Assembly: GCA_963695345.1 (NCBI GenBank)
Contig: OY968769.1
Location: 1,920,001 to 1,984,000 of the forward strand
Origin: an uncultured Methanomassiliicoccales archaeon
GTDB taxonomy: Archaea; Thermoplasmatota; Thermoplasmata; Methanomassiliicoccales; UBA472
Reading direction: 5' to 3'
Length of the DNA stretch: 64,000 nt
Part shown: positions 41,859 through 58,448 of the stretch, in pieces
Layout of the letters: every line of letters starts with the position of its first letter
Position numbering within the stretch: position 1 is the first letter of the stretch
Notes under the pieces: model-generated
What the model was told of the DNA's origin: nothing
Seen by the model: only the letters and a program-made list of their open reading frames with translations
The model's database searches: none
Program-made: the position numbers and the translations under genes

Positions 41859-42977
41859 ATGTCATTTTTTACTCATGAGGACAAGGTGAACCCAAAATCA
41901 CTTAGTTCCATTGACCTTCACGACCATGTTGCAATTGTTTATGAGACGCGACAGAGCATGTTCGACCTTCTCGCGGAGCTGTGCAAGATCGGCCTGGAGA
42001 GGAACGAAAAGTGCTTGATTTCGACATATGAGGGGAAAGAGATCGAGACGCACCTCCGGCGGGCCAGGATCGATGTCGATTCAGCCTTGTCATCCGGTTC
42101 CCTGGTCATTCGAGATGTCCCTAAGATATTCCCCAGCGAGGCCAGTTTCGATCCAGGCCGGACCGTCGCTTTGTTCGAGGGCTTGATCAAAGAGGCGTTA
42201 GATCAAGGCTATTCCGGGTTGAGAGTATTCAATTCATCGTATTCTCCATCACCCCTCGAAGACCCTAAGCTCCATCTCGATTACGTCAAGGATATGGGGC
42301 GGGTGATGAGGGATAATAAGGTCGTTCGGATCAGTCTCTATGATCTGGACGATAGAAAGCCCGACATCATCATAAACGCCATTCTATGCCATCCGACGAT
42401 CATCCTGAGAGGGATCGTCTGCAACAATTTTTTCTATATCCCCCCCGAGCAGCTGTTCGGCCCCAAAGGCGGTTCCCCCGAACTGTACCGGCTGCTGGAC
42501 AACCTGATCGATGTCCATCAGAACGAGCTCAGTCTTAAGGAAAGCCACGAAAAGCTGGAAACGACAAATCGTATTCTTCGCGAGGAGATCACCAAGAGGA
42601 AGATGGTCGAATGGGCCCTCTTGTCATCCGAACTGCGTTATCGCAATACCTTGGACTCGATCAACGAGATGGTCGCTGTCATCGACCGGGACTACAAGGT
42701 CACCCTGACGAACAAGGCGATGGAGACCATGGGAGACACGCTGGGGGTCGACTGCCGCTTCGTCGGTAAGCCATTATTCGAGGCTTTCCCGCATCTCTCA
42801 AAAGAGGAAATGGATGAATACGATCATGTGTTCAGGACCGGAGAGAAGATCGTCACTCAACGAGCCTACTCCCATAACGGCCTAATGGTGTGGGCCGAGG
42901 TCAGCAAAGTACCGATGATGGAAGGAGACATAGTTGTCAATGTGACAACGATTGTCCGCAGTTTGCATAAGCAGTAG
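41859..42977 (+). CDS. MEDS-domain sensory protein with coiled coil and PAS domain
   Basis: HDHVAIVYE..GLERNEKC..GYSGLRV..HP.I...CNNFFYIPPE, then SELRYR-PAS. Confidence 0.85.
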   Translation: MSFFTHEDKVNPKSLSSIDLHDHVAIVYETRQSMFDLLAELCKIGLERNEKCLISTYEGKEIETHLRRARIDVDSALSSGSLVIRDVPKIFPSEASFDPGRTVALFEGLIKEALDQGYSGLRVFNSSYSPSPLEDPKLHLDYVKDMGRVMRDNKVVRISLYDLDDRKPDIIINAILCHPTIILRGIVCNNFFYIPPEQLFGPKGGSPELYRLLDNLIDVHQNELSLKESHEKLETTNRILREEITKRKMVEWALLSSELRYRNTLDSINEMVAVIDRDYKVTLTNKAMETMGDTLGVDCRFVGKPLFEAFPHLSKEEMDEYDHVFRTGEKIVTQRAYSHNGLMVWAEVSKVPMMEGDIVVNVTTIVRSLHKQ

Positions 42978-43279
42978 CAATTTTGTCCTGATGAGCGTTA
43001 AAAAAAGAAGGCCCTATTTTCACTATTGATTCTCACGTATCGACGTTAATATACCATGGTGGCGATTATCCAAATGGGATATGGGAGCACTCGATACCAG
43101 TACATTCAAGAGCGGATGCCATAAGGATCGAATTCGACACCACCTCGCTCCCCTCCTCCTCTTTTTAAATTTCAGTTCTTGAGAACAAGGATCTCAACTC
43201 ATTGGAAGCACGAAGGTTCGTAGCGACGATAACGGCGAATTCGGCAATTATTAATATGGTTTAATCGTTCAAGGATTAG

Positions 43280-43296
43280 TTGGATGTATCATCCAA
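43280..43296. promoter_or_regulatory. Palindromic operator TTGGATG-TAT-CATCCAA upstream of corrinoid salvage operon
   Basis: Perfect 7-3-7 palindrome downstream of TATA-like TTAATA (43251). An identical copy lies upstream of cobT. Confidence 0.8.
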
Positions 43297-43336
43297 TTGC
43301 GGCTGTAGGGGCTGCGAATAGGGGGAAAGGATATCT

Positions 43337-44416
43337 ATGGCAAGCAAGAAAGGGGCAATAATCGCTGTAATCGTCGTCATCGCATTGGTGGCCAGTGGAG
43401 CATTCGTCTTCATGGGGATGAACAAGGCCAAGACCAACGAGATAGGCGCAATCACGATCACTGACGCATTGAGCAACAACGTAACCTTGAACTCGACACC
43501 GCTAAGGGTGGTTTCCGCATCACCGAGCACCACTGAGCTGCTCTACGCGATGGGAGTCAACGGATCAATAGTAGGGGTCACCGACTATTGCGACTATCCG
43601 GTCAACGGAACCGGAAAGTCGCCCAAGGATATCTTCGAATCCATAGGCGGTTTCTATTCACCCAGCTATGAGGCCATTGCCGGACTCGATCCGGACATCG
43701 TGCTCTTGGACGCAGGGGTCAAGACGCACAAGGACATGATGACCCAGCTCGCTGCTGTCAATATCAAGTACGTCTCACTGTATCCGGGCAAGAACATCAC
43801 CGAGATCCAGAAGAACATCGTACTTCTCGGGAAGATATTCAGCAAGACGACCACCTCCTCGGCCATAATCAGTGACATGGACTCGAAATTCTCGGCGATC
43901 ACGACCGCGATCGGGAACGTGTCCGCCAAGCCCAGCGTCATGGTCATGGTCGGTTTCAGCCCTGACATCTGGGTCAACGGCGGCAAGACCTTCATCAACG
44001 ACATCATAGTCGCATCCGGCGGGGTCAACGTGTTCGCCAACTCGTCGAGCTATGCCACCATCACCAAGGAAGGCGTGGTGGAGGCCAACCCCGACATAAT
44101 AATCGTCACTTCGTCGATGATACCCGGACTGACACCGCAGCAGGTGCTGGACCAGCTGGCCGCTGACCCGATCCTGGGAGGCCTGGGCGCTGTCCAGAAC
44201 CACAAGGTGTACGTCCTTCAGGACGACGCGGAGGGCTGCTTCCTCCGCTCGGCGACCCGTGTGACCCAGGCTACCCAGGTCCTGGCGGACATACTGTATC
44301 CGACGGTATTCGGCGAGACCATCCCGAACATACTGGGGGACGGCTACAAGGACTACCTCCCGGACAGCTGGGGCACCGGCACGAGCGCGCGGACGACCAT
44401 GACGACGGTCGCGTGA
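43337..44416 (+). CDS. btuF: Corrinoid/iron-siderophore ABC transporter substrate-binding protein (BtuF-like)
   Basis: RVVSASPSTTELLYAMG, VGVTDYCDYP, GG.NVF and NPDIII. It is the first gene of a cob operon. Confidence 0.88.
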   Translation: MASKKGAIIAVIVVIALVASGAFVFMGMNKAKTNEIGAITITDALSNNVTLNSTPLRVVSASPSTTELLYAMGVNGSIVGVTDYCDYPVNGTGKSPKDIFESIGGFYSPSYEAIAGLDPDIVLLDAGVKTHKDMMTQLAAVNIKYVSLYPGKNITEIQKNIVLLGKIFSKTTTSSAIISDMDSKFSAITTAIGNVSAKPSVMVMVGFSPDIWVNGGKTFINDIIVASGGVNVFANSSSYATITKEGVVEANPDIIIVTSSMIPGLTPQQVLDQLAADPILGGLGAVQNHKVYVLQDDAEGCFLRSATRVTQATQVLADILYPTVFGETIPNILGDGYKDYLPDSWGTGTSARTTMTTVA

Positions 44417-44420
44417 TCAT

Positions 44421-45465
44421 TTGAACGGTTCTGTGGTCGAGCGGGCCAAATCCAGACTGTTGCTCATAGTGATAGCTGGAAGCATCTCGCTCACCCTGCT
44501 TTTTTTCATCTCATTGAGCATCGGCGCATACCGTATGAGCTTCGAGACCTCCATATCATCCTTCTTCAACCTCGTCTCCAATTTCGGCAACCCTCTGAAC
44601 ATGGACGAGAACATCATCATGAACTCCCGCCTGCCCCGGACCGTCTCCGTCATCGCGGTGGGGATCGGACTTTCCGTCGCCGGAGCGGTCATGCAGGCCA
44701 TAATAAGGAACCCCCTGGTCGACCCTTACATCACCGGGGTATCATCGGGGGCAGCGCTCGGGGTGTCATTGGTCGTGCTGGGCGGGGTCTCGCTCGCCGG
44801 GGTCGGCATGTTCTCCATGCCCATAGCCGCCTTCATCGGAGCCATATGCGCCTTCGGCCTTACCATGGCGCTTGTGCGAGGCCGCGGGAGGCAAACCTAT
44901 CAGCTTCGTCCTGGCCGGTGTCATGATCGGACTGGGACTTTCCTCCTTCACGAACATTCTGGCCGTCCTCAATCCAGATGAGCACAAGAGCGTCCTGTTC
45001 TGGATGTTCGGCTCGTTCCAGTCGGTGACTCCGATGCAGACGCTCATCATACTCATCCCCACGATCACGATCGTCGTCATCATGCTGGTCTTCGCCCGGG
45101 AGATGAACGTCATCCTTCTCGGGGAGGAACAGGCGGGCCAGCTGGGGCTCAATGTCCGTTCGTTCAAATGGACAATGATGATACTGACATCCTGCGTCAC
45201 CGGGATATGTGTGGCCTTCACCGGCGTCATCGCTTTCCTGGGATTGATCGTCCCGCACTCCGCCCGGATGATCGTCGGCAGCGACCACCGTCTCCTCCTT
45301 CCGGCGTCGATCGTCATCGGGGCGAACGTGCTGCTGGCCGCGGACATCGTCGCTCGCTCGGTCATCATGCCCTCGGAGCTGCCCATCGGAGCCATAATAT
45401 CGTTGATAGGGGTCCCGTTCTTCGCGTACCTGCTGATCAGGAGGGGGAAAGAGTATGGAGCCTGA
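44421..45465 (+). CDS. btuC: FecCD/BtuC-type ABC permease (frameshift near 44872)
   Basis: RLPR, MQAIIRNPLVDPYITGVSSGA, GVIAFLGLIVPH and ELPIG...G.PFF. Confidence 0.9.
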
Positions 45466-46252
45466 GGGTAAGACCATCACCGTCAAGATCAATGGAATAT
45501 CGTTCGGCTATAACGGGAAGAACACCCTGGAAGGGATCGACCTGGAATGCTCCAAAGGGGAGTTCGTCGGATTGATCGGCCCGAACGGCTCAGGGAAGAC
45601 CACATTGCTGCGGTGCATCAACGGCGTCCTGAAACCCAAGGTGGGAACGATCTTCGTCGAGGGGAAGAACATCGACAAGATGAAGATCAAGGAGATAGCC
45701 AGGGTCTGCGCCAACGTCCCGACGGACGCGGCCGAGGACCTGACGCTCACGGTCCACGAGTTCGTTTTCCTGGGTAGGTATCCGTACGTGAGCGGAATGT
45801 GGTGGGAGAGCAAGGACGACGAGGAGATCGTCGACAAGGCCATCTCCACGTTCAAGCTCGAGCACCTGGTGAAACGCCGGCTGAACGAGCTCAGCTCCGG
45901 CGAGCAGGCCCGGGTGCTTCTCGCGAAAGCCGTAGTGCAGCGTCCGCTGGTCATGCTTGTCGACGAACCGTCGGCGCATTTGGACCTGAGATACAAGCTG
46001 GAGGTCATGGAGGAGCTGCACGCCCTCTCCAGGACCGGGATAACTGTGATTTGCGCTTCCCACGACCTGAACCTGATGTCCAAGTTCTGCGACCGGGTGC
46101 TGATGATCGGCCAGGGCAAGATCGTTTCGTTCGGTCTGCCCTCGGAAGTGATGACCGAGCAGAACATCCGTGAGGTCTACGGGGTCGAGGTCCGGGTGTT
46201 CCGCGAGGACGACGAGATATACGCCATTCCAAAGAGGTCGATAAGGCAATGA
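45455..46252 (+). CDS. btuD: ABC transporter ATP-binding protein (BtuD-like)
   Basis: GPNGSGKTT, LSSGE, VDEP and HDLN. Confidence 0.9.
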   Translation: MEPEGKTITVKINGISFGYNGKNTLEGIDLECSKGEFVGLIGPNGSGKTTLLRCINGVLKPKVGTIFVEGKNIDKMKIKEIARVCANVPTDAAEDLTLTVHEFVFLGRYPYVSGMWWESKDDEEIVDKAISTFKLEHLVKRRLNELSSGEQARVLLAKAVVQRPLVMLVDEPSAHLDLRYKLEVMEELHALSRTGITVICASHDLNLMSKFCDRVLMIGQGKIVSFGLPSEVMTEQNIREVYGVEVRVFREDDEIYAIPKRSIRQ

Positions 46253-47385
46253 ACATCGAGGAACTGGTCCGCTCGGACCTCCTGAACATAAAACGGCCGA
46301 TACACGGCGGGCTGGGCTGGAAATACCAGGGCGTGGAGGACTTCAGCTCTAACCTGAACCCGCTGGGCCCGCCGCCGCAGGTGCGGGATTACATGCTGGA
46401 GGCGGCCGACAAACTGATCTACTATCCCGACGACAGCGGTTCGGAGCTCAAGGACGCCATCTCCCGGCGCTTCGGCGTCAACCGGGACAACATCATGCTC
46501 GGTGCCGGTTCGGCCGAGCTCATCCGGCTGTTCCCGGACGTCTTCTTCAACAAGGGGGACGGGGTCATCATGCCCCGGCCGACCTTCGCCGAGTACCAGT
46601 TCGCCCTGAAGATGCGGGGTGCCAGCATACACGATTTCCCGCTTTGCGAGATCGACGGGTTCCATTTCGACTTCGCCCGGCTGAACTACATGATCGAGTC
46701 CGGATCGAAGGCTGTCTACATCTGCAACCCGAACAACCCCACCGGCGTGGTGGAAAGCAGGAAGCGCATCGTCGAGATCATCGAGGAGTGCGAAAGGAAG
46801 AACACCATCGTCTTCCTGGACGAGACGCTCCTGGAGCTGGTGGACAACGCCCGCGACCTGACCTGCGTCTCGGAAGCGGAGAGCCATGACAACCTGTTCA
46901 TCATCCGTTCGTTCACCAAGTGCTTCGCCATCCCCGGACTGAGGGTCGGGTACGCCATCGGATCGAAGGACCTGATCCGGCACATGGACAACGCCCGCCT
47001 GGCGTGGAACCTGGGCCAGGTGGAGATGCATGTCGCCGCAAGGCTCTTGGACGATTGCTACGGTCACATCGAGACGGCCGCCCGGCTGATGGCCGAGGAG
47101 AAGCCCTATCTGCTCGATGCCATAAAAAGAACGGAAGTCGTCTCGGCCTCGAGGCCGGACGCGTTCTTCTTCTTCAACCGGGTCAACGGCGGCCTGGACT
47201 CGAAGCAGCTGAAGGAACTGCTCCTCCGTTTCAACGTCCTGGTCCGGGACTGCGGTTCGTTCGGAAGGCCGTTCGAGAAGTTCGCCCGCTTCGCCATCAA
47301 GACCCATGACCGCAACGTTCACCTGGTGGAGGCGTTCAAGCGGACCGCCGAGATCATGGAGAACCTGAAGACCAAGGGTGAATGA
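46249..47385 (+). CDS. cobD: L-threonine-O-3-phosphate decarboxylase
   Basis: HGG..DFSSNLNPLG, CNPNNPTG and RSFTKCFAIPGLRVGY, in cob operon context. Confidence 0.88.
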   Translation: MNIEELVRSDLLNIKRPIHGGLGWKYQGVEDFSSNLNPLGPPPQVRDYMLEAADKLIYYPDDSGSELKDAISRRFGVNRDNIMLGAGSAELIRLFPDVFFNKGDGVIMPRPTFAEYQFALKMRGASIHDFPLCEIDGFHFDFARLNYMIESGSKAVYICNPNNPTGVVESRKRIVEIIEECERKNTIVFLDETLLELVDNARDLTCVSEAESHDNLFIIRSFTKCFAIPGLRVGYAIGSKDLIRHMDNARLAWNLGQVEMHVAARLLDDCYGHIETAARLMAEEKPYLLDAIKRTEVVSASRPDAFFFFNRVNGGLDSKQLKELLLRFNVLVRDCGSFGRPFEKFARFAIKTHDRNVHLVEAFKRTAEIMENLKTKGE

Positions 47386-48392
47386 CATGCTGTCGGACCT
47401 GTACCTATACGGTCTACTCATACTCGTTCTGGCGGTGGTCATCGACCTGCTGCTGGGGGAGCCGCCCGAACGCCGCCCATCCGGTGGTCTGGATAGGCAA
47501 GGTCATCGGGTTCATGGACAGGCACACCAAGAGGACCGGCAGGAAAGGTTCCGAACGGGCGAGGGGTGTGCTGCTGGCCCTGGTGCCGCTGCTGCTGTTC
47601 CCATTCGTGTTCACGCTGCTGCTCTTCCTGCTGCGGGACCTGTTCGGCGCGCTGGTCTGGGCCATCGCCTGCGCGATCCTGCTCAAGACCATGTTCGCCA
47701 TCAACGCCATGGGGAAGCACACCCTGCCGATCCAGAAGGCGCTCGAGCGGGGGGACATGGAAGCGGCCCGCAAGAGCGCTTCAATGATCGTCTCCCGCGA
47801 CGTGAACAAGCTGGACCGGGAGCATATCATCTCGTGCGCGGCCGAGTCGGCGGCGGAGAACACGGTGGACAGCATTTTCTCGCCGTTGTTCTTCTTCGGG
47901 CTGGGCGGCATGCCGCTGATCATCTTCTACCGGGTCTCCAACACGCTGGACGCGATGGTCGGTTACATCGATCAACCGTATACCCACGTCGGCTGGTTCA
48001 GTGCCAAGCTGGACGACTGCACGAACTACATCTGCGCCCGCATTTCGTTGCCGTTCATCCTGCTGGCGCTGATGATCCTGGGCATGGACTGGAGGGGTGC
48101 CTGGAGGGACGCCAAGAAGTACCACAGGGCGACCCTGTCGCCGAACAAGGGCTGGTCCATGTCCGCGTTCGCCGGTGGACTGGGCATACGGTTCGAGAAG
48201 GTGGGGTGGTATGTCATGGGTGACGGACCACTGCCCACCGACCCGAAGGTCATCGGGAACACCGTCAAGGTGATGAAGGTCTCGGCGCTCCTTTTCATCG
48301 CACTGGTGGTGGTGCCGTTGTTCCTGTTCGTCGGGCTCAATGTCCAGATATATATCGAAAACCTATTCTCCGGTTTGTTCGGGTGGTTGTGA
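47378..48392 (+). CDS. cbiB: Adenosylcobinamide-phosphate synthase (frameshift near 47460)
   Basis: DLLLGEP..HPVVWIG, VSRD, ESAAEN..D, YRVSNTLDAMVGY and SPN.GW.M. Confidence 0.93.
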
Positions 48393-48394
48393 GC

Positions 48395-49529
48395 ATGGGC
48401 AAGGTGGATGTTACTACAAGATCGAAGAGGTGGGGGAGAACACGGTGCTGGTGGTCCGGCTGCCGCAGCGAGATGAAGGTCCTGAGCACGACCGTGCTGA
48501 ACGGCGGGTTCTCGGTATCGGACACCTCCTCTCCGTCCAGGTCCCCATCCACTATAATGGCACCGACCCGGAGTCGGAGGTAGTGGAGATCTGCGGGAAG
48601 CTGGGGCTCTGCGCCGAGTCGGTCGGTTTCATGACCGCCGTCGACCTGAAGAAGGTCATCACCATAGTCAGCGAGGAGTACAACGGCATCAACGCGACGG
48701 TGGTGGCTACATCCGGCGTGAAGAACGCCGTCTATGCCGGGGAGCTCATGACCGATGCGCTGGTGCGCGGACTGAACGGTCCCGGGACGATCAACATCAT
48801 CGTGGCCCTGGACAGGCCGCTGCACGAGACCGGCATGGCCAACTCCCTGATCACCATCACCGAGGCCAAGACCGCCGCCCTCATGGACACCAAGACCAAG
48901 GGGACCGGTACCACCAGCGACGCCATCGCCATCTGCTGCCCCGAAGGCGACGGGGAGAAGTATGCCGGAACCGCGACGGACGTCGGCATCTGCATGGCCC
49001 GGGCGGTGCGCAAGGCGGTGGCCGCCTCGACGCTCAAGTGGTATGCCACGTCCGGGACCGGTGGACTTCATCAAGCTGCTGGACGACCGGGGCATCACCA
49101 TGGAGGAGATGTGGACCGCGGCCAACAAGCTGGTGTTCCCCAACCCGGACTGGCCGGAGGGATTCCTGAAGGGCAGGTTCGATGGAACGCATGAACCTGC
49201 TGAGGCAGGACATCAACGTCAACGCCATGGTCAAAGGGGCGATTCTCCTGGAGGACGCGGGCAAGGCCCAGGACCTGTATGGCCTCGACAACGGAGTGTT
49301 CGATTCGGACCCGGTCCACCTGTTGGCCGATGAGCTCATGGGGATCGCGCTGGCCGAGTACATCACCGGCACCAAGGGCCTTTTCGAGTACGTTCGCTAC
49401 GACCGCAAGAAGCCCGGCATCCTGGCCGAGCTTGGCCCGTTCCTCGACGATATCGTCGGGGCGCTGATCGGGGCGGTCATGTCCAGGATATACTCAGATC
49501 TACTGGAGGCGGAAGGACGACTACAATAG
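48395..49529 (+). CDS. cbiS: Bifunctional adenosylcobinamide amidohydrolase (CbiZ) / alpha-ribazole phosphatase (CobZ), CbiS-like (frameshifted)
   Basis: VGFMTAV, GTINII, TEAKTAAL and GTGTTSDAI (CbiZ). DPVHLLADE..G..G.FEY.RYDRKKPGIL..LGPFLDD (CobZ). Confidence 0.85.
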
Positions 49530-50320
49530 GCGCGGTCAAAGCGGCATTCTCGATGTTCACGATGATACCGCTGGATGTCGAGGGCGAGGAGGTCGTCGGG
49601 CTGTCGAAACGGTTCTACCTCATCGTGCTGGTGGGAGCATTCTACGGATTGATCGCCGGATCGCTGATGTGGGTCATGTCCCACGTCTTCACGACGCTTG
49701 ACGGCGGGAGTACTGGCATTGCTGGTGGTCCACGGGCTTAACCGTTTCCTGCACTTCGACGGGTTGAGCGACTTCGGCGACGGAATGATCTGCAGCGGTG
49801 ACCAGGAGAAGAAGATGAGGGCGGTCAAGGACTCGCACACCGGCGCCGGCGGCATAGGCTATTCCATCGTCTTCACCGCGCTGAGCATCGTCGCGCTTGG
49901 GCGAGCTGTCACCGCAGCTGGTCTTCTTCGGACCGTTCGTGGCCGAGCTGCTGAACAAGAACGCCATGGTCTTCGCCGCCTCGGCCGGTTCTTCAAGGGA
50001 AGGACTGGGCGGCATATTCGTCAAGAACGCGTCGGCCAAGACCGCCGCCATATCCGCCCTGATATCGCTGGCGTTCATCGTCCCGGTCAGTCTCGCCATC
50101 AACTGGTATTACGGACTGTCGATGTACTGGCTGCCTCCTAATGATGGTGGCGCCGCTGGTCATGAGCTGTCTGGTCGGAACGATCGCGGCCAGGATCGCG
50201 ATGAAAGGGTTCGGCTGCGTCAACGGGGATGTGCTCGGCGCCACCAACGAGTTCTCCCGGCCGTTCGTTCTGCTGACCGTCTCGGCGGTGGTCTGGTGCC
50301 TGGCCACGCTGCACTGGTGA
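49517..50320 (+). CDS. cobS: Adenosylcobinamide-GDP ribazoletransferase (cobalamin synthase, frameshifted)
   Basis: FTMIP, HFDGLSDFGDG, KDSHTGAGG and FGCVNGDVLGATNE. Confidence 0.92.
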
Positions 50321-50920
50321 CGGCCGGCGGCAAGGGCAGCCGCATCAGCGAGCTGGGGGTGGAAAAACCCTTGGTCCTGATCGCTGGCGTGCCCATGATC
50401 GACCGGTTACTGGACGAGCTGGCCAGATCATCGATGATCGACCGGATGTACGTATCGGTAAGTCCCTTGGCCCCGATGACCAGGGAGCATCTCAAAGGGA
50501 TGGATGTGATAGTGATCGATACACCTGGAAATGGATACGTGGCCGATCTGAACGGCTCGATGAACGCCATCGAGGAGGATGCGGTGCTGGTCTGTCCCTC
50601 GGACATGCCGCTGATCACCTCCGCCGGTGTTGACGAGCTCATCGCCACCTATGACGAAAGGGCTCAGCCCTCACTGACCGTGGCACTGCCGCCTACAGGT
50701 CATCGAGTCATTGGGATTGATCGTCACCTATATCGAGGAGATCGACGGCAGGCCGCTGACGTTCTGCGGAGTGAGCGTCGTCGACCGTCTGGAGATGCTG
50801 ACCGGTAACTTTTTGCCAGGCGGTTATTTCGTTACCGAAAAGGAGGAGTTCGCGGTGAACGTCAATACCGTCCACGACCTCCGCCTGGCAGAAAGGATTT
50901 TGGAGGAGAGACCTAAGTAG
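50296..50920 (+). CDS. cobY: GTP:adenosylcobinamide-phosphate guanylyltransferase (frameshift near 50700)
   Basis: ALVTAGGKGSR..EKP, TPGNGYVADL, SDMP and NVNT..DL..AE. Confidence 0.9.
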
Positions 50921-50928
50921 TGGTGCGT

Positions 50929-52043
50929 CTAGTGTTTGGCTAGGGCCATGATCTTCTCGTAGTTCTTCTCGATCTCGGCGAACATGCTCTTGCAGGTGAT
51001 CGCCCCGCTGCTTTGGCAGAAAGCGGCGATGGATATCCCGCCGGCGCCTACCCCTTCCTTCACCAGGCCTTTCTCGTAGAACGTAAGCCCTTCGTGCTTC
51101 GTCGTTGTGAAGTCCAGGTTGGCCGCCAGTACCGGCACATGGCCGATCTGCTTCACGATCCCGACCAGGTCCGCGGACTGGTCCTTTATGATCCATCTGG
51201 TAGTCCCCAGCGCGACGTTTTCCAGCGCCTTGGGTTCCATCGCCTTGACGATGGCCAGGACGGCGGCCATCTGTGTTCCGCCCGGCCAGAATGACCGGGA
51301 CCTTCCGCGCCGCCCCGACGATAAGGCCGGCAGCCGCCGGCATCATCGGGTCGCCGACCGCCGCCATTGCCAGCATGGCGTCGTTCTTCATCTGCTCTAT
51401 GGTCGATCTTGATCTGGATATGCCTTCCTTGGCTATGCTGGACTTGAGGGAGTGAGGGTTCTCCGGCAGCGTCGAGCTGACCTTGCCGTCTGCGTTGTAG
51501 CCCAACGCCAGCAGCACTGCCAGGGCGGTCGTCGTTCCGCCTGCGATGCTCTCCCCGACCACCAGATAATCGGAGACCTTGGCCAGGTTCTCACCGGCGA
51601 TGATCGCGTTCTCGATAGACACGCTTTGGGTCCCGGACCGCCGCTCCGGTCTTGATGTCCTCACCGGGATGTCCTTCCAGTTCGAAATAGGGAGCATGGG
51701 GTCTGACCCTGACGCCGCCGTTGGCGGCGTAGAACGGCATTCCCGTCAACCCTATCGCGCTCATGGTGACCAGGGCCGGGGTCGGTATCCCGTTCGGTGT
51801 GACCGGAACGCCATCGATGCACTTGCATCTCCCATAGTAAAGCAGTTCGATGTCGGCGGCCGGGGTGAAATCGGTGATGGCCGGTACGGCACCGGCGGCC
51901 GAGATGCCCGGGATCTTCGCCGTTTCGGTGTTTCCGATGACGCAGATGAAGGTCGGTCTCTTGCCCCAGACCTTCTCCACGAACACCTTCGCCTTCTCCT
52001 CCTCATTGCAGATCAGGATGTCCTCAGGGACTTTGAAGCTCAT
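50929..52043 (-). CDS. cobT: Archaeal nicotinate-mononucleotide:base phosphoribosyltransferase CobT (frameshifted)
   Basis: TETAKIPGISAAG, TPAAD.E, PTPAL, GESIAGGTTTA, GDPM and VKEGVGAGG. Confidence 0.92.
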
Positions 52044-52065
52044 ATCTTGGCACCTCCGAATTGAG

Positions 52066-52082
52066 TTGGATGATACATCCAA
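52066..52082. promoter_or_regulatory. Second copy of operator TTGGATGTATCATCCAA (on - strand) upstream of cobT
   Basis: Identical 17-mer in the transcription direction. It lies 16 nt after a BRE/TATA-like GAAAAAG-CATTAAATA on the minus strand. Confidence 0.8.
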
Positions 52083-52154
52083 CGTATGGGGCCAAGACTA
52101 TTTAATGCTTTTTCGAGGCAGAAACGATGGCACGGTTGTGTGCGGACCGCTCGT

Positions 52155-53213
52155 CTAGATGAAAATCCTCGGTAGCAGGTCCCCGAGCTGGATACATTTC
52201 GATTCCTGTTCGCAGAACCTTTTTCCCTCGGCGGAAGTGTCGAGTCTATCGCAAATGGCGTACGGCACCTTCATCACGATATGTTCGCCGGTGACCGACG
52301 AGCAACCATGGTCAACGATGACGGCGATGCGGCAATTGGAGAACGATTTCGCGTTCCGCATGAGCTCCTTGTCCACCGCCTCGAGGAGCTCCACCTTCTC
52401 TCTCGGGGCTCGTTTGTGGGAGATGTCGTCCGTCTCCTCGACGTGCAGGAACACATCCCCGTCCTTGATCATCAAGGCCGCTTCCTTGATGCTCTGTTTG
52501 AACCCCGGTACCCGTTTCGACTTGATGCCTAGGAACGCCGCCACACCCAGAGCGGAAGGGCTCTTTGAGAGGATGGTCATCGACGGTATCTTCCTCCCAT
52601 TCATCCTGGCCTCCTCCGCGAGCTTGCCGAACCCGCCTCCCCATGGCAGCATCGTTATGCCGCCGGTGTGTTCCGCCACGGATTCCGCGAATGTCCCGAA
52701 CTCATAGAGGTCCTCGGGCATCACGTTGGCCGGGCCTGGTGGTTTGGGGAGGTCAAGTATCCGGCTGCTCTCCACCGTCATCACGGCCTTTCCGCCCTGG
52801 TAGAAAAGGATGCTCGGTTTCATCCCAGATATGTGCTTTTTGCTCTTCAGGACCGCCTTCTGCAATTGGATCTCATCCGCGACCGACACTTTGTAATACC
52901 ATTCCACACGGCCATCCACGATCTTGGCCGGCGTCATCCGGTAGGCGATCCGGGAAGCGTCCAGGGGAAGGCCCATCCCGAAAGCCTCGATGACCCCCCG
53001 GGGTACATCGAGAGGCTTGCCGGAGAACAATTGCAGAAGGAAGAAGTGGGTGTATTCCCGGGCGTCAGTGCATCCCAACTCGCCGCTCGACGCAATAGAA
53101 TTGATGAATTTCATGTTGGAAATCTGGAGCGGGGTCTTGTAGTCAAGCGCTGGGACCTTTTCGTCGGTCGCTCCATCGAGCATGATCACAAGCGTCCGCT
53201 TTGAGTTGGACAT
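52155..53213 (-). CDS. Alkaline-phosphatase-superfamily protein, divergent ApgM/iPGM-like
   Basis: LDGATD..TPLQ, FLHVEETDDISH, VDHG and GEH metal-ligand motifs. Confidence 0.8.
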   Translation of the reverse strand: MSNSKRTLVIMLDGATDEKVPALDYKTPLQISNMKFINSIASSGELGCTDAREYTHFFLLQLFSGKPLDVPRGVIEAFGMGLPLDASRIAYRMTPAKIVDGRVEWYYKVSVADEIQLQKAVLKSKKHISGMKPSILFYQGGKAVMTVESSRILDLPKPPGPANVMPEDLYEFGTFAESVAEHTGGITMLPWGGGFGKLAEEARMNGRKIPSMTILSKSPSALGVAAFLGIKSKRVPGFKQSIKEAALMIKDGDVFLHVEETDDISHKRAPREKVELLEAVDKELMRNAKSFSNCRIAVIVDHGCSSVTGEHIVMKVPYAICDRLDTSAEGKRFCEQESKCIQLGDLLPRIFI

Positions 53214-53287
53214 ATCATCCATTAACACAATTCATATCCTTAATCGTTTTGCAGGGCGGTTATCGTGAGATGAATGGGCCAGCATAT

Positions 53288-55473
53288 TCAGTGACCGGAC
53301 AGGGCGATCGCGCACTGCCCGGCCGAGATGCAGCCGTCGCCGTTCGGCAGCTGATCCGGCAGAAGCAGCTCGAACCCTTTGGAGCGGGCGATCTCTCTGG
53401 TCAGCCGGCAGACGGTCGCGTTATAGGATACCCCTCCAGTGATCCCTATGGCGCCAAGGCCTTTGGAATCGGCCTCGAGGCAGGCGATATCGACCAACGA
53501 TTCCAGGATCGCCTTCACGAAGCTCACCGCCAGGTCTTCCTTCCTTCCGTCGGACTCAAACAGCTGGGCGAACAGCGGGATGGTCTGAACCACTCCATTC
53601 TTCACCTCCGCGGCCAGCTCGACGGTCGGTTCTCCCTTCTCCAGCCATCTCTCCAGCTTCATGGCCGGCTCTCCGTCATAGGAACGATACTGGCATATCC
53701 CCAGGTAGCAGGACAGGGCATCCATGACCCTTCCCATGCTGGTGGTCTTCGGGCTTTTGGTCATCAGCTTTCGGAGCAGGGCGGCGTCGACGTCGGTGAA
53801 ATACCCGCCATCCTGTCCCAGAGTCTCCCGGATGGCGAACACCAGCCGCTTGACGTCGTAGACCGCCTTCTCACCGCCGAGCAACGGTATCTCCTGCAGA
53901 TGGCCGACCCTGCGATAGGAGTCGAACCCGGAGTGCAGGACCTCGCCGCCCCATGCGTTGCCATCGTCACCGTAGCCGGTGCCGTCCAGGGTCAGGGCGA
54001 CCGTCTCATCGATGCGGTGGTCCACCATCAGCGCGGCGGCATGGGCCCAATGGTGCTGGACCTCCACGAGCCTGACCCCGGACCCTTCGGCCAGACGCTT
54101 TCCCAGCCGGCGGGTCGAGTATCCGGGATGCAGGTCGATGCCGATCGCCTCGACGGTGTCCGCTCCCAGAAGCCTTCTCTGGTAGGCCAGCCCTGATTCC
54201 AGGAACTCGAGGACGCCGGCAGAGCTGGCATCCCCGATGTACTGGGTGGCGTACAGCTTCTTACCGATCGCCAGCGATCCGGCGATGCTCTCCTGCGCCC
54301 CCAGCCCGATCGCCGTCCCTTCGAAAGGAAAATCGACGGCGACCGGGATGTGTCCTCTCGACTTGCGAATGTAGAACGTGCGGTCATCGAAGCTGCGTAC
54401 CACCGAATCATCGCACCGGTTGACGATCTCCCGATCGTGGAACAGGTAGCAATCGGCCCCCAGCGCAAGGGCGTCCTCGTCGCGCAGGACCATCGGTTCA
54501 CCGGGGACGTTGGCCGAGGTCATTACCAGGGCATCCTCGTCCAGCTCGGAGAACAGGATGTGCTGCATCTCGGTGTACGGCAGGAACACCCCGATGTTAC
54601 CCAGTCCGGGAGCTATCATTTCGGTGACGGCAGAATCCTTCTTGGGCAGCAGCACGATCGGTCGGTGTGTCGATAACAGCAGCTCTTCCTCGTGCCGGTC
54701 CGGTGAAGCGTACCTCCATGGCCGATTCTATGTCCCGGACCATGATGGCGAACGGTTTCTCCCGTCTCCGGTACCACTGCCTCATCCGGGGAAGAGTTGA
54801 GAGGGTGCAGCATAGGTGCATGCCTCCCCAGCCCTTTCGCAACGCCAATAAAACCCTTAACGAGCATCGAGGCGAACGTCGGGATCGGTTCGCCTGGAAC
54901 CGACCTGCCATCGCCATCAAGCAGCCGGAACTTCGGGCCGCACACCGGACATGAGATGGTCTGGTGATGGAACCTTCTGGCCCCCGGGTCTCCGTACTCT
55001 CGGTGGCAATCGGGGCACATCGGGAACTGGTTCATCGAAGTGAGCTCGCGGTCATACGGAAGGTCATTGATGATCGAGAATCGGGCACCACAATCGGTGC
55101 AGTTGGTGAACGGATAGAGATGGCGTCGGTCTGACGGGTCGAACATCTCTTTCTGGCAGTTCTCGCATACCGCGGTGTCGTTCGGGATGCCGACTCCCTT
55201 CTGGCCGCTGGAACTTTTCACGATCTGAAAACCAGTTCCGGCCAGTTCACCGTTGGGCCGGCCCGGGGACATCTCCACGCTGTCCAGCCGTGCCAGTGGA
55301 GGAAGCGTCCTGCGCAGTTCGGATAGGAACAGGTCCGCGTCACCATCGACCTCAATGACGACGTTCGAACCGTTGTTCTGCACATATCCGTCCATTCCCA
55401 GCTGGGTGGCCACCCGATGGACCGTAGGCCGGAAGCCGACCCCCTGGACAATGCCGCGGACAGTTATACGCAT
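53288..55473 (-). CDS. hypF: [NiFe]-hydrogenase maturation carbamoyltransferase (frameshifted)
   Basis: GIVQGVGFRP, CENC/CTDCGAR/CPDC/CPVCGP zinc fingers, MTSAN, QHHWAH, DGTGYG and DG.IS.GQ. Confidence 0.96.
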
Positions 55474-56510: not shown

Positions 56511-58448
56511 ATGTCATTCAAGAGAGTATTGTTGATCAAACCTTCCGGAAGGCACGGCCTTTCCTACGCATTCGACCTGATCCCCACCGGGCTGGAGTAC
56601 ATCGCCGCCTCGTTGGAGGATATCGTTGATAAAGTGGTCATATTGGACCTGGAGATGGGGGGCAGACCTTATCCTGATCTTATTACAGAGGCCTTGAAGG
56701 TCCATAATCCTGACCTGGTCGGTATAACGATGTCAGCGACAGAGCACAGCGAAGGTCTGGAGATCGCCCGAATGGCCAAAGGCCAGGGGGCCGCCACTCT
56801 GATGGGCGGATACCATCCCACGGCGATTCCCGATGAACTGCTATCGCATCGCCAGGTGGACATGGTGGTCCGCGGCGAAGGCGAGATGACCATACGTGAG
56901 CTGGTTCTGAAAGGGGGGCCTCAAGGAGTCAAGGGCGTTTCGTACCGGGAGGACGACAAGATAATCCACAACCCCGACCGGGAGTTCATCGAGGACCTGG
57001 ACAGCCTTCCATTTCCGGCCCGGCATCTGAGAAAGCACACGTACGGAACGAGGTTGATGCGGGACCGCGACTTTGATGTGCTGACCACGTCCCGCGGTTG
57101 CTGGGGCAGGTGCACCTTCTGCTGTGAGCCCACCATGAGCAAGAGCCATCAACGTTACCGTTCACCCGAGAACGTGATGAAGGAGATACTGGAGATCGTC
57201 TCCTTCCATAACAACAAGCCGCTCGCCATCGACATAACCGACCCTCATTTCATGGGCAAGCCGGAGCTGGTGGAGCGCCTCTGCGACCTTCTGGCGCCGC
57301 ACCATCTCGACATCCGCTTCGGGGTCAAGGTGCGGGCCGATTCGGTGGCCAAACATCCCGAGATCGTCAGGAAGATGATCGCGGTCGGGATCGAGGGTTT
57401 CGAAATGGGCATCGAAAGCCCTAACCAGGAGGATATCCGCTCCACAGCGAAGGGGATGAGCATCGACGTACACGTTACGGCGGTTAATAACATCAAGAAA
57501 TATGGAGGCAACGCAGGCGGGACCTTCGTCATCGGCCTTCCTGGTCAGACCGAAGAACAGATCCTGGGTTTCCCGGCCTATGCCAAGAAGATAGGGCTCA
57601 CCAGCACCGCCTACGGCATTGCCACGCCATTTCCCGGAACGAAGTTCCATGAGGACCTGGATGCCCAGGGCCTGATATTCGAGACCGACTGGAACCGCTA
57701 TGACGAGATGCACTCCATATTCCGGTCCGATCACCTCTCCAGCCAACGGACGGAAGAGCTGGCCTCGATCTGCATGGCCCGGTTCTGGACGGTGGACACG
57801 TTCATCGAAAAGGAACGGATGCACACGATAAGGTCCGCATCGAAAAGACCGTTGATAAAGTTCATCGGGGACAAGATGCAGGAGCTGGACTTCTCGCTGA
57901 GGATGGGATCGCAGTTGCAGACCAAGAACCTGGGGAAACACGTCATATCCGTCATCGAGGCGTCAGCCGACCCTGGCGTTGAGAGATACACCAGGGAGGT
58001 GGGCGTGCACAACATCATCGAAATGCCCGTGCTCCTACGGCTGATGGGCGATCAAAAGGTGCAGCTCACGGTAAAGAGCAACGGAGAGGCGGTCACAAGC
58101 TGGATACTCAAGACCGCCCAGAACAAGGTGGAGTACATCCAGGTGATACCAGGAAGGTCGGATCAGAGCACGGTGAACGTGGACCTGGAACTGGATGATT
58201 TCAATTTCAGCAAGAGCGGCAGCGTGAACCTGGTCGAGAGCATCGCCATCCTGGGGAAGATGCTAGCTTCGAACAAGGGGATCAGGAAGCAACCGACGAT
58301 GATCCGATTGATGGTTGCCGGAGGTATGGAGATGGTCGTGGGCTACGTTAGGAGCATGGACCGAAAGGTCTCCGGAAAACGCTCCACCAGCATGCCGAGG
58401 GTTAGTCCATGCGGTCCGTCCTGCGCCGACAGCCCATGGGCAAAATAG
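56511..58448 (+). CDS. B12-binding-domain radical SAM protein with C-terminal extension
   Basis: PTGLEYIAA, PDLVGIT, GGYHPT, GEGE, TSRGCWGRCTFC, GIES and TPFPGT. Confidence 0.92.
   Translation: MSFKRVLLIKPSGRHGLSYAFDLIPTGLEYIAASLEDIVDKVVILDLEMGGRPYPDLITEALKVHNPDLVGITMSATEHSEGLEIARMAKGQGAATLMGGYHPTAIPDELLSHRQVDMVVRGEGEMTIRELVLKGGPQGVKGVSYREDDKIIHNPDREFIEDLDSLPFPARHLRKHTYGTRLMRDRDFDVLTTSRGCWGRCTFCCEPTMSKSHQRYRSPENVMKEILEIVSFHNNKPLAIDITDPHFMGKPELVERLCDLLAPHHLDIRFGVKVRADSVAKHPEIVRKMIAVGIEGFEMGIESPNQEDIRSTAKGMSIDVHVTAVNNIKKYGGNAGGTFVIGLPGQTEEQILGFPAYAKKIGLTSTAYGIATPFPGTKFHEDLDAQGLIFETDWNRYDEMHSIFRSDHLSSQRTEELASICMARFWTVDTFIEKERMHTIRSASKRPLIKFIGDKMQELDFSLRMGSQLQTKNLGKHVISVIEASADPGVERYTREVGVHNIIEMPVLLRLMGDQKVQLTVKSNGEAVTSWILKTAQNKVEYIQVIPGRSDQSTVNVDLELDDFNFSKSGSVNLVESIAILGKMLASNKGIRKQPTMIRLMVAGGMEMVVGYVRSMDRKVSGKRSTSMPRVSPCGPSCADSPWAK

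Follow-up and report, generated by a model that had tools for sequence, protein, structure and literature searches.

How archaea control their vitamin B12 genes without riboswitches has reportedly been a question since 2003, and it is raised in concrete form by a stretch of 64,000 nucleotides from an uncultured Methanomassiliicoccales archaeon (contig OY968769.1), in which a short palindrome recurs at the promoters of btuF, cobT and an ApgM-like gene. This stretch, bases 1920001-1984000 of a single 2.56-Mb contig, is referred to throughout as the window. An earlier note on it had read the palindrome as the operator of a B12 regulator, a reading that the genome comparisons described here support. 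We consider it fairly probable that these boxes are the operators of a protein-based B12 regulon found throughout the order, that they would be bound by a dimeric repressor, and that the likeliest regulator is a short protein of the DUF4443 family. The question can now be put in terms of a precise putative operator, a conserved regulon and a named candidate protein.

The palindromic box and its promoters

The 17-mer TTGGATGTATCATCCAA occurs exactly twice in the window, once on the + strand (box 1) and once on the − strand (box 2), and a 14/17 copy, TTGGACATATCATCCAT, forms box 3 (coordinates in Table 1). All three sites had been located by the earlier note, which had noticed none at non-B12 genes in the window; no further copy was found at three or fewer mismatches in the 64 kb. 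In 100 dinucleotide-preserving shuffles the mean number of matches was 0.08, and not one shuffle reached the five strand-matches observed. Boxes 2 and 3 have the flank ttgagttgga in common, as had been described. An A/T-rich TATA-like element lies 5' of each box, as the earlier note had it, although at 12-22 nt it is closer than the 20-30 nt given there.

The archaeal TATA-to-start distance is ~26 nt. The element before box 1 puts the predicted start at or in that box, and the TATA geometry likewise suggests a start inside box 2; the start codons read in the sequence are ATG at 43337 (+) for btuF and ATG at 52043-52041 (−) for cobT. Box 3 holds one ATG at 53222-53220 and another at 53213-53211. 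Its first base is T in two congeneric genomes (A or T across the genus), which leaves the inner ATG alone conserved, and because of this variation we take the inner ATG, at positions 10-12 of the box, as the start codon of the ApgM-like gene, in keeping with the earlier statement that the third copy overlaps that codon. The TATA-like element of box 3 is kept in the genus as 'cgattaaggat/cgattaaagat', and the predicted start falls on this inner ATG, which suggests a leaderless mRNA that would begin within the operator.

Across the 2.56-Mb genome the exact 17-mer occurs five times, and strong sites (three or fewer mismatches) number ten, seven of them outside the window. Every one of the ten lies at a promoter or at the start of a gene, and no fewer than seven are at cob/cbi/btu, corrinoid-protein or DUF4430/energy-coupling factor (ECF) uptake genes; the enrichment at corrinoid genes anticipated by the earlier note is thus present, and the motif is not scattered. 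A position-weight matrix trained on the ten sites is circular and was used solely for the gap to the next candidates: the ten score 25-38 bits and everything else at most 15.7. The core TGGAT-N5-ATCCA occurs 17 times in the genome, as compared to 0-2 times for seven control palindromes, and the extra core matches comprise one tRNA-Ser anticodon arm, one match resembling another tRNA (by eye), three in coding sequence and three with ATGGAT-type arms. The gene maps used in the analysis are crude longest-open-reading-frame (ORF) maps with several wrong strands or starts, and the starts quoted here were read by eye.

Among the sites outside the window, one precedes cobQ; the cbiT/cbi operon and a sirC-like gene share one TATA that is flanked by two boxes; one precedes a methyltransferase corrinoid protein, where it sits 5' of the TATA (genome 2353120); and one precedes a pair encoding a pyrroloquinoline quinone (PQQ)-type beta-propeller and a DUF4430 protein, followed by ECF transporter genes. 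An exact box at genome 338077 (L002:5937-6698, +), just 3' of a TATA-like element, fronts a GPR1/FUN34/YaaH (AceTr-family) membrane protein. Another, at 1622435 (L006:3798-6041, −), fronts an operon of a Tdh-like Zn-dehydrogenase and a TrpD-like phosphoribosyltransferase, with a NimA-like gene on the opposite strand. The earlier note had seen no cobalamin riboswitch in the leaders, and RF00174 indeed gives 0 matches in the whole genome (150 candidates scored), with a positive control in seven bacterial genomes.

The box is conserved throughout the order. Among 101 sampled genomes from it, 98 have the pattern TTGGATGNNNCATCCAA with at most one mismatch, and these cover 29 of 30 genera; the reversed control pattern gives one match each in three genomes of the same sample. 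We write the box as TTGGAT[G/A/T]WWW[C/T/A]ATCCAA; the consensus of 113 distinct boxes is aRTTGGAT[G>A>T]WWW[C>T>A]ATCCAAYt. Conservation upstream of orthologues, on which the earlier note had staked its reading, was found across the order. The best BtuF homologue was taken from each of 30 genomes. With the source genome left out, every one of the 15 close full-length homologues had a single box or a pair at −34 to −122, and among 14 distant homologues four had a box 421-722 nt 5' of an uncertain start and ten had none; in genus g2 there are two boxes 23 bp apart, the first of which abuts the TATA box. Of the 19 family genomes that have the ApgM-like gene, 16 have a box in the interval that separates it from cobT, and 10 have one at the start of the ApgM-like gene. 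Genome G051 likewise has a box between the ApgM-like gene and a cobT that scores above the TIGR00303 cut-off. In two genomes of other families the flanks of 16 of 33 boxes were examined, and the neighbours include two BtuF-like genes, cobT (above the TIGR00303 cut-off), an ApgM-like gene and a CobD-like aminotransferase, as well as a ribonucleotide reductase of class II, read divergently from trpE, the Tdh-like/TrpD-like operon, PKD/fn3 proteins of the cell surface and several genes that match no family.

Because it is a palindrome, the transcribed box would fold into a hairpin with a stem of 7-8 bp and a loop of 3 nt, and boxes 1 and 2 are alike in their orientation to transcription, as might be expected of an RNA hairpin in 5' leaders acting as a riboregulator or as the site of an RNA-binding protein. 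However, any palindrome folds, the z-scores are unremarkable in two of the three leaders, the predicted starts lie within the box, and the centre of box 3 points the other way from those of boxes 1 and 2. At the cbi/sirC and corrinoid-protein promoters, and also at the Tdh-like one, boxes flank or precede the TATA; those at the first two cannot belong to the transcript. Furthermore, positions 7 and 11 of the 113 distinct boxes form a Watson-Crick pair in 43, a G-U pair in 17 and no pair in 53; the half-sites therefore vary independently, and a stem is not maintained by compensation. We regard the hairpin as scarcely tenable. The box has the inverted-repeat symmetry, the promoter-proximal place and the recurrence at functionally linked genes that characterize an operator, and the majority of boxes lie between the TATA and the start codon.

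A candidate regulator of the DUF4443 family

The earlier note had placed the regulator outside the window, and the candidate to which the evidence points, P0001, is encoded ~476 kb away (genome 2459654-2460235). It is a protein of 194 aa with a winged helix-turn-helix (wHTH) and a DUF4443 domain; its gene lies 3' of an archaeal metK, with a gap of 4 nt, and ~400 nt ahead of the box of the propeller/DUF4430 operon, and it is the sole DNA-binding gene adjoining any of the ten boxes in the genome. Pfam gives DUF4443 (PF14544) at 109 bits (cut-off 27), PH0730-like_N at 39 (30.2) and CggR_N at 38.5 (30). Signature domains of ThiR, RbkR, TrmB and DtxR are absent, with Pfam and NCBIfam giving solely DUF4443 and wHTH models. 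The AlphaFold2 model, made from a 20-sequence alignment (predicted local distance difference test 90.3), has a CggR-like wHTH and an alpha/beta domain, and the whole length matches PH0730 (PDB 2p8t) by phmmer (E 1.3e-13) and by Foldseek (E 1.2e-11, template-modelling score 0.73); the C-terminal domain alone gives weak matches to the aspartyl-tRNA synthetase insertion domain and to NiaR. Public names of the family are 'DUF4443 domain-containing protein' or 'predicted transcriptional regulator', its ESM Atlas clusters are archaeal only (among the phyla given are Nitrososphaerota, Promethearchaeota and Thermoproteota), and in the texts, titles and abstracts covered we found no publication on the family or on this motif.

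The short DUF4443 protein is present at full length in 57 of 61 sampled genomes of the order. Its orthologue in Methanomassiliicoccus luminyensis (P0089) is 64% identical. Two of the four genomes without it are 66% and 78% complete, and in a third a partial copy stands next to a box where the contig ends. The last of the four, G022, which is 99% complete and has boxes but no short DUF4443, was considered as a counter-example and rejected, as the adjoining essential metK is also missing from the assembly. By comparison of coordinates, a box lies 47-360 nt past the 3' end of the DUF4443 gene in 11 genomes of families f2, f3 and f5 (G001, G003, G005, G014, G015, G019, G020, G024, G028, G032 and G036) and likewise in the source genus. 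For five of the 11 (G001, G015, G024, G028 and G036) this is the genome's only box at one mismatch or fewer. The operon behind it encodes a beta-propeller, DUF4430, EcfT, EcfA-A' and an ECF S component (L043:7591-12845). Passages of PMC4350170 describe DUF4430 as a domain at the C-terminus of transcobalamin, and because of this a role of the operon in corrinoid uptake is plausible. A propeller and DUF4430 together with ECF components or DUF6580 were also seen at L160:893-1988 and L162:6129-7232, and the set resembles an undescribed archaeal corrinoid capture-and-import system.

Outside the order, box and protein were followed through a phylum sample of 201 genomes, which includes 14 of the same class that fall outside the order and twelve others with a DUF4443 homologue. 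Those 14 all lack both box and protein. Two genomes from outside the class, G130 and G119, each have boxes and just one DUF4443 gene, which is of the short type: G130 has the order metK, DUF4443 gene, box, DUF4430, DUF6580, and G119 has a box before a PQQ propeller/PKD gene 1.4 kb from its DUF4443 gene and a second box before DUF6580 and DUF4430. In G138 a box followed by DUF4430 and DUF6580 stands at a contig end. At six DUF4443 loci (G103, G114, G171, G231, G254 and G109) no box is nearby. Simple counts across the phylum are uninformative, at least one pattern match with at most one mismatch being found in 72 of 176 non-order genomes and the examined ones being mostly intra-ORF; in the five protein-less genomes with the most pattern matches, 14 of the 15 examined (of 20) lie inside ORFs on the crude map.

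Under the mechanism we propose, a dimeric winged-helix regulator would bind TTGGAT[G]-WWW-[C]ATCCAA at sites that adjoin the TATA or span the transcription start, at some promoters through tandem or TATA-flanking pairs of boxes, and once bound would block the recruitment of TATA-binding protein and transcription factor B or of RNA polymerase. With sufficient corrinoid it would repress uptake (btuFCD, and ECF with the DUF4430 and beta-propeller proteins), the salvage and nucleotide-loop genes (cobD, cbiB, cbiZ, cobS, cobY and cobT) and de novo synthesis (cobQ, the cbi operon and sirC), and the C-terminal DUF4443 domain would sense a corrinoid. Repression is likely because the boxes abut or follow the TATA and cover the predicted start. 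We infer that the DUF4443 protein binds the box as a dimer and, from the content of the regulon and the position of the sites, that it represses and has B12 as its effector.

Several observations weigh against this mechanism or against P0001 as its agent. The earlier note had expected an autoregulated transcription factor, and no box was seen 5' of metK and the candidate gene, so there is no classical autoregulation; the box lies instead just 3' of the candidate in some lineages. A profile scan with the candidate alignment returned a best 80 relatives, all labelled Methanomassiliicoccales or higher taxa, and a box lies at most 600 nt 3' of the gene in just 11 of these 80 closest public relatives (the control pattern gives 0 matches in the 967 kb of those loci); in the order sample, candidate and box adjoin in just 9 of 30. 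The linkage is real but lineage-restricted, and the adjacency could reflect conserved gene order beside one regulated operon. Three of the DUF4443-bearing genomes outside the order (G109, G114 and G171) show no box. Pfam finds in P0001 no B12-binding domain of the CarH/MerR type (PF02310/PF02607), and co-transcription with metK could indicate another effector. Two exact boxes front genes without a known B12 link, namely the AceTr-family protein and the Tdh-like/TrpD-like operon, and sites 5' of the TATA, as at the corrinoid protein (2353120), suit activation equally.

These last points bear on the possibility that operator and regulator are as proposed and that the signal is not a corrinoid (but S-adenosylmethionine (SAM), methyl-group status or cobalt), or that the protein activates. 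The candidate gene is co-transcribed with metK at a gap of 4-5 nt, the protein has no known B12-binding domain, some boxes lie 5' of the TATA, and non-B12 genes are among the targets, all of which would fit. Nevertheless, corrinoid transport, salvage and synthesis genes dominate the regulon, which also includes DUF4430, the transcobalamin C-terminal domain (in the passages of PMC4350170 cited above), and most boxes occupy the classical repressor position between TATA and start codon. We consider a different signal or mode of action quite improbable.

The box could also be a true B12 operator that is read by another regulator, and one contender is a longer member of the same family. A paralogue of ~325 aa that joins DUF4443 to DUF2111 is encoded in every order genome examined (source genome in Table 1), and its recognition helix, 'GEGSxRTI', is identical to that of the short form. 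An ATGGAT/ATCCAT inverted repeat lies between the TATA and the ATG of the long paralogue in 17 of 20 genomes by pattern (L183-L202), and the remaining three have the same repeat at wider spacing, by eye. In at least 15 genomes this gene and mcrB are 6-8 kb apart, and in 18 of 29 genomes (L248-L276; families f1-f5, not f6 and f7) ATGGATGGA-N3-TCCATCCAT stands ~10 nt 5' of the mcrB TATA; a site just 5' of the TATA is in the position typical of archaeal activators. In the source genome the mcrB site is at 2366859 (L057:2855-2875), and a related site precedes mtaC-mtaB at 1848480 (L056:2480). The long paralogue is thereby a candidate for an autoregulated regulator of methanogenesis genes. The DUF4443 family thus travels with TGGAT-type palindromes, which supports assigning the B12 box to the short form, although the long form stays a rival reader of it.

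A second contender is encoded beside the candidate. A regulator with HTH_3 and CBS domains, divergent from metK (L043:4952-5644, −), is kept in six genomes of three families (L043-L048) and may be a SAM-related regulator of metK. Besides the shared recognition helix and related palindrome of the long paralogue and the retention of the HTH_3+CBS gene at six loci, the confinement of the short gene-box adjacency to some lineages (11 of 80 loci) would suit either of these proteins or an unlinked factor. In G130 and G119, however, boxes stand at DUF4430/propeller genes and yet the sole DUF4443 gene is of the short type, and the gene beside metK in G130 encodes a DAC-domain protein, not the HTH_3+CBS protein. 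The long paralogue is a neighbour of mcrB, and its ATGGAT arms are found at mcrB and mtaC, not at B12 genes; no further DNA-binding gene adjoins any of the ten boxes. On balance, we think another reader of the box unlikely, and the short DUF4443 protein remains the preferred regulator.

Taken together, the two forms admit a broader proposal, which we put forward tentatively and with some doubt: DUF4443 would be a new small-molecule sensor, its short form a repressor that responds to corrinoid and governs the entire B12 economy, both in Methanomassiliicoccales and in two other families of the phylum, and the DUF2111-fused paralogue a regulator of the methyl-coenzyme M reductase and methanol methyltransferase genes through a sister palindrome. 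If this is true, a single family of transcription factors would couple cofactor supply to methanogenesis, and DUF4443 winged-helix proteins would be the archaeal counterpart of B12 riboswitches.

Genes beside the boxes

The gene names in the earlier note hold, btuF matching Peripla_BP_2 and cobT TIGR00303, with a weak match for the ApgM-like gene. The run behind box 1 is probably one operon, given its tight same-strand spacing. In it, btuC matches FecCD over two frames, the PgpA-like gene is a fragment, as is cobS, and for cobD the threonine-phosphate decarboxylase model is the best match, yet below its cut-off. The cobT ORFs match TIGR00303 positions 2-125 and 124-231, and a frameshift or an assembly indel is the probable reason for the two-frame reading.

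Table 1. Boxes, promoter elements and genes, in window positions (genome positions for the long paralogue)
Feature	Position	Strand	Remarks
Box 1, TTGGATG-TAT-CATCCAA, palindrome arms	43280..43296	.	exact; 40 nt 5' of btuF ATG
TATA-like ttattaatat	43248..43257	+	22 nt 5' of box 1; sequence read
Box 2, same 17-mer as box 1	52066..52082	. (reads on −)	22 nt 5' of cobT ATG
TATA box ttaaatag	52099..52106	−	16 nt 5' of box 2; sequence read
Box 3, on − strand ATGGATGATATGTCCAA	53206..53222	.	at start of ApgM-like gene
TATA-like ttaaggatat	53235..53244	−	12 nt 5' of box 3; sequence read
Box 1 target run: btuF, btuC (split), btuD, cobD, cbiB, cbiZ, PgpA-like (CobZ-type), cobS (fragment), cobY	43337..50808	+	Pfam, NCBIfam
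Archaeal-type cobT (nicotinate-mononucleotide phosphoribosyltransferase)	50708..52043	−	two overlapping frames, 51591-52043 and 50708-51697
ApgM-like metalloenzyme gene, adjoining cobT	52155..53213	−	Pfam Metalloenzyme, NCBIfam apgM, both far below cut-off
Long paralogue (DUF4443+DUF2111), source genome	2373714-2374679 (L057:9715-10680)	−	outside window

The ApgM-like gene stands beside cobT in 19 of 25 family genomes and also in G051. Since 49182-49529 already holds a PgpA-like (CobZ-type) gene, the ApgM-like enzyme is probably not the known alpha-ribazole phosphatase. The Tdh-like/TrpD-like operon is boxed in two families of the order (also in G051, L167); its products are possibly unrecognised corrinoid-related enzymes, and a part in the aminopropanol arm or in lower-ligand activation is speculation.

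Genes in two overlapping frames are seen at btuC (44421-45465), cobS (49698-50141), cobT (50708-52043) and hypF (53288-55473), and marker completeness is 85% for this one-contig genome; assembly indel errors are more likely than true pseudogenes for the four split genes. A MEDS + PAS sensor protein with no DNA-binding domain is encoded at 41859-42977 (+), ending 300 nt 5' of box 1. A B12-binding radical SAM gene at 56511-58448 (+) has no box, and the regulon therefore omits some corrinoid-dependent genes.

Relation to known regulatory systems

Methanomassiliicoccales are methanogens of gut and wetland whose energy metabolism relies wholly on corrinoid methyltransferases, and how they control B12 is therefore of consequence for methane production and for the exchange of cofactors within microbiomes. 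The regulon also takes in genes yet to be characterised (the ApgM-like enzyme, the Tdh-like/TrpD-like operon and the uptake set of DUF4430, propeller and ECF proteins), and the box offers a practical marker for new B12-related genes.

A related signal may already have been described. Rodionov, Vitreschak, Mironov and Gelfand (J Biol Chem 278:41148, 2003) reportedly predicted an archaeal 'CBL-box' as the signal of a hypothetical B12 regulator, with none named. The CBL-box is reported to be, like the present box, a conserved DNA signal 5' of cobalamin synthesis and transport genes in archaea without B12 riboswitches; genomes of Methanomassiliicoccales were absent in 2003. Bacterial RF00174 riboswitch regulons cover the same gene set (btu, cob/cbi and B12-related genes), presumably with the same logic of cofactor feedback, but RF00174 is an RNA element in the leader, whereas the element here is a short DNA palindrome at or near the TATA and the start.

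Parallels in kind are ThiR (thiamine) and RbkR (riboflavin), archaeal one-component DNA-binding proteins with palindromic operators at the promoters of vitamin synthesis and uptake genes. Unlike these, the candidate combines a CggR-like wHTH with DUF4443 and has no ThiN or riboflavin-kinase domain, and the vitamin differs, as presumably does the motif. TrmB, a global regulator that responds to sugars, belongs to a different family and has a different motif, and by Pfam the candidate lacks the TrmB domain. In Halobacterium salinarum, TrmB is reported to act on cobalamin synthesis genes as well (PMC2710871, PMC3794607). PH0730 (PDB 2p8t), a Pyrococcus horikoshii protein from structural genomics, shares its two-domain architecture and fold with the candidate; we found no published function, ligand or DNA site for it, and the one paper found to mention it, PMC6316755, names it just in a table of transcription-factor families. 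A protein-based vitamin regulon is thus of a known kind, and the regulator that probably governs this one belongs to an uncharacterised family.

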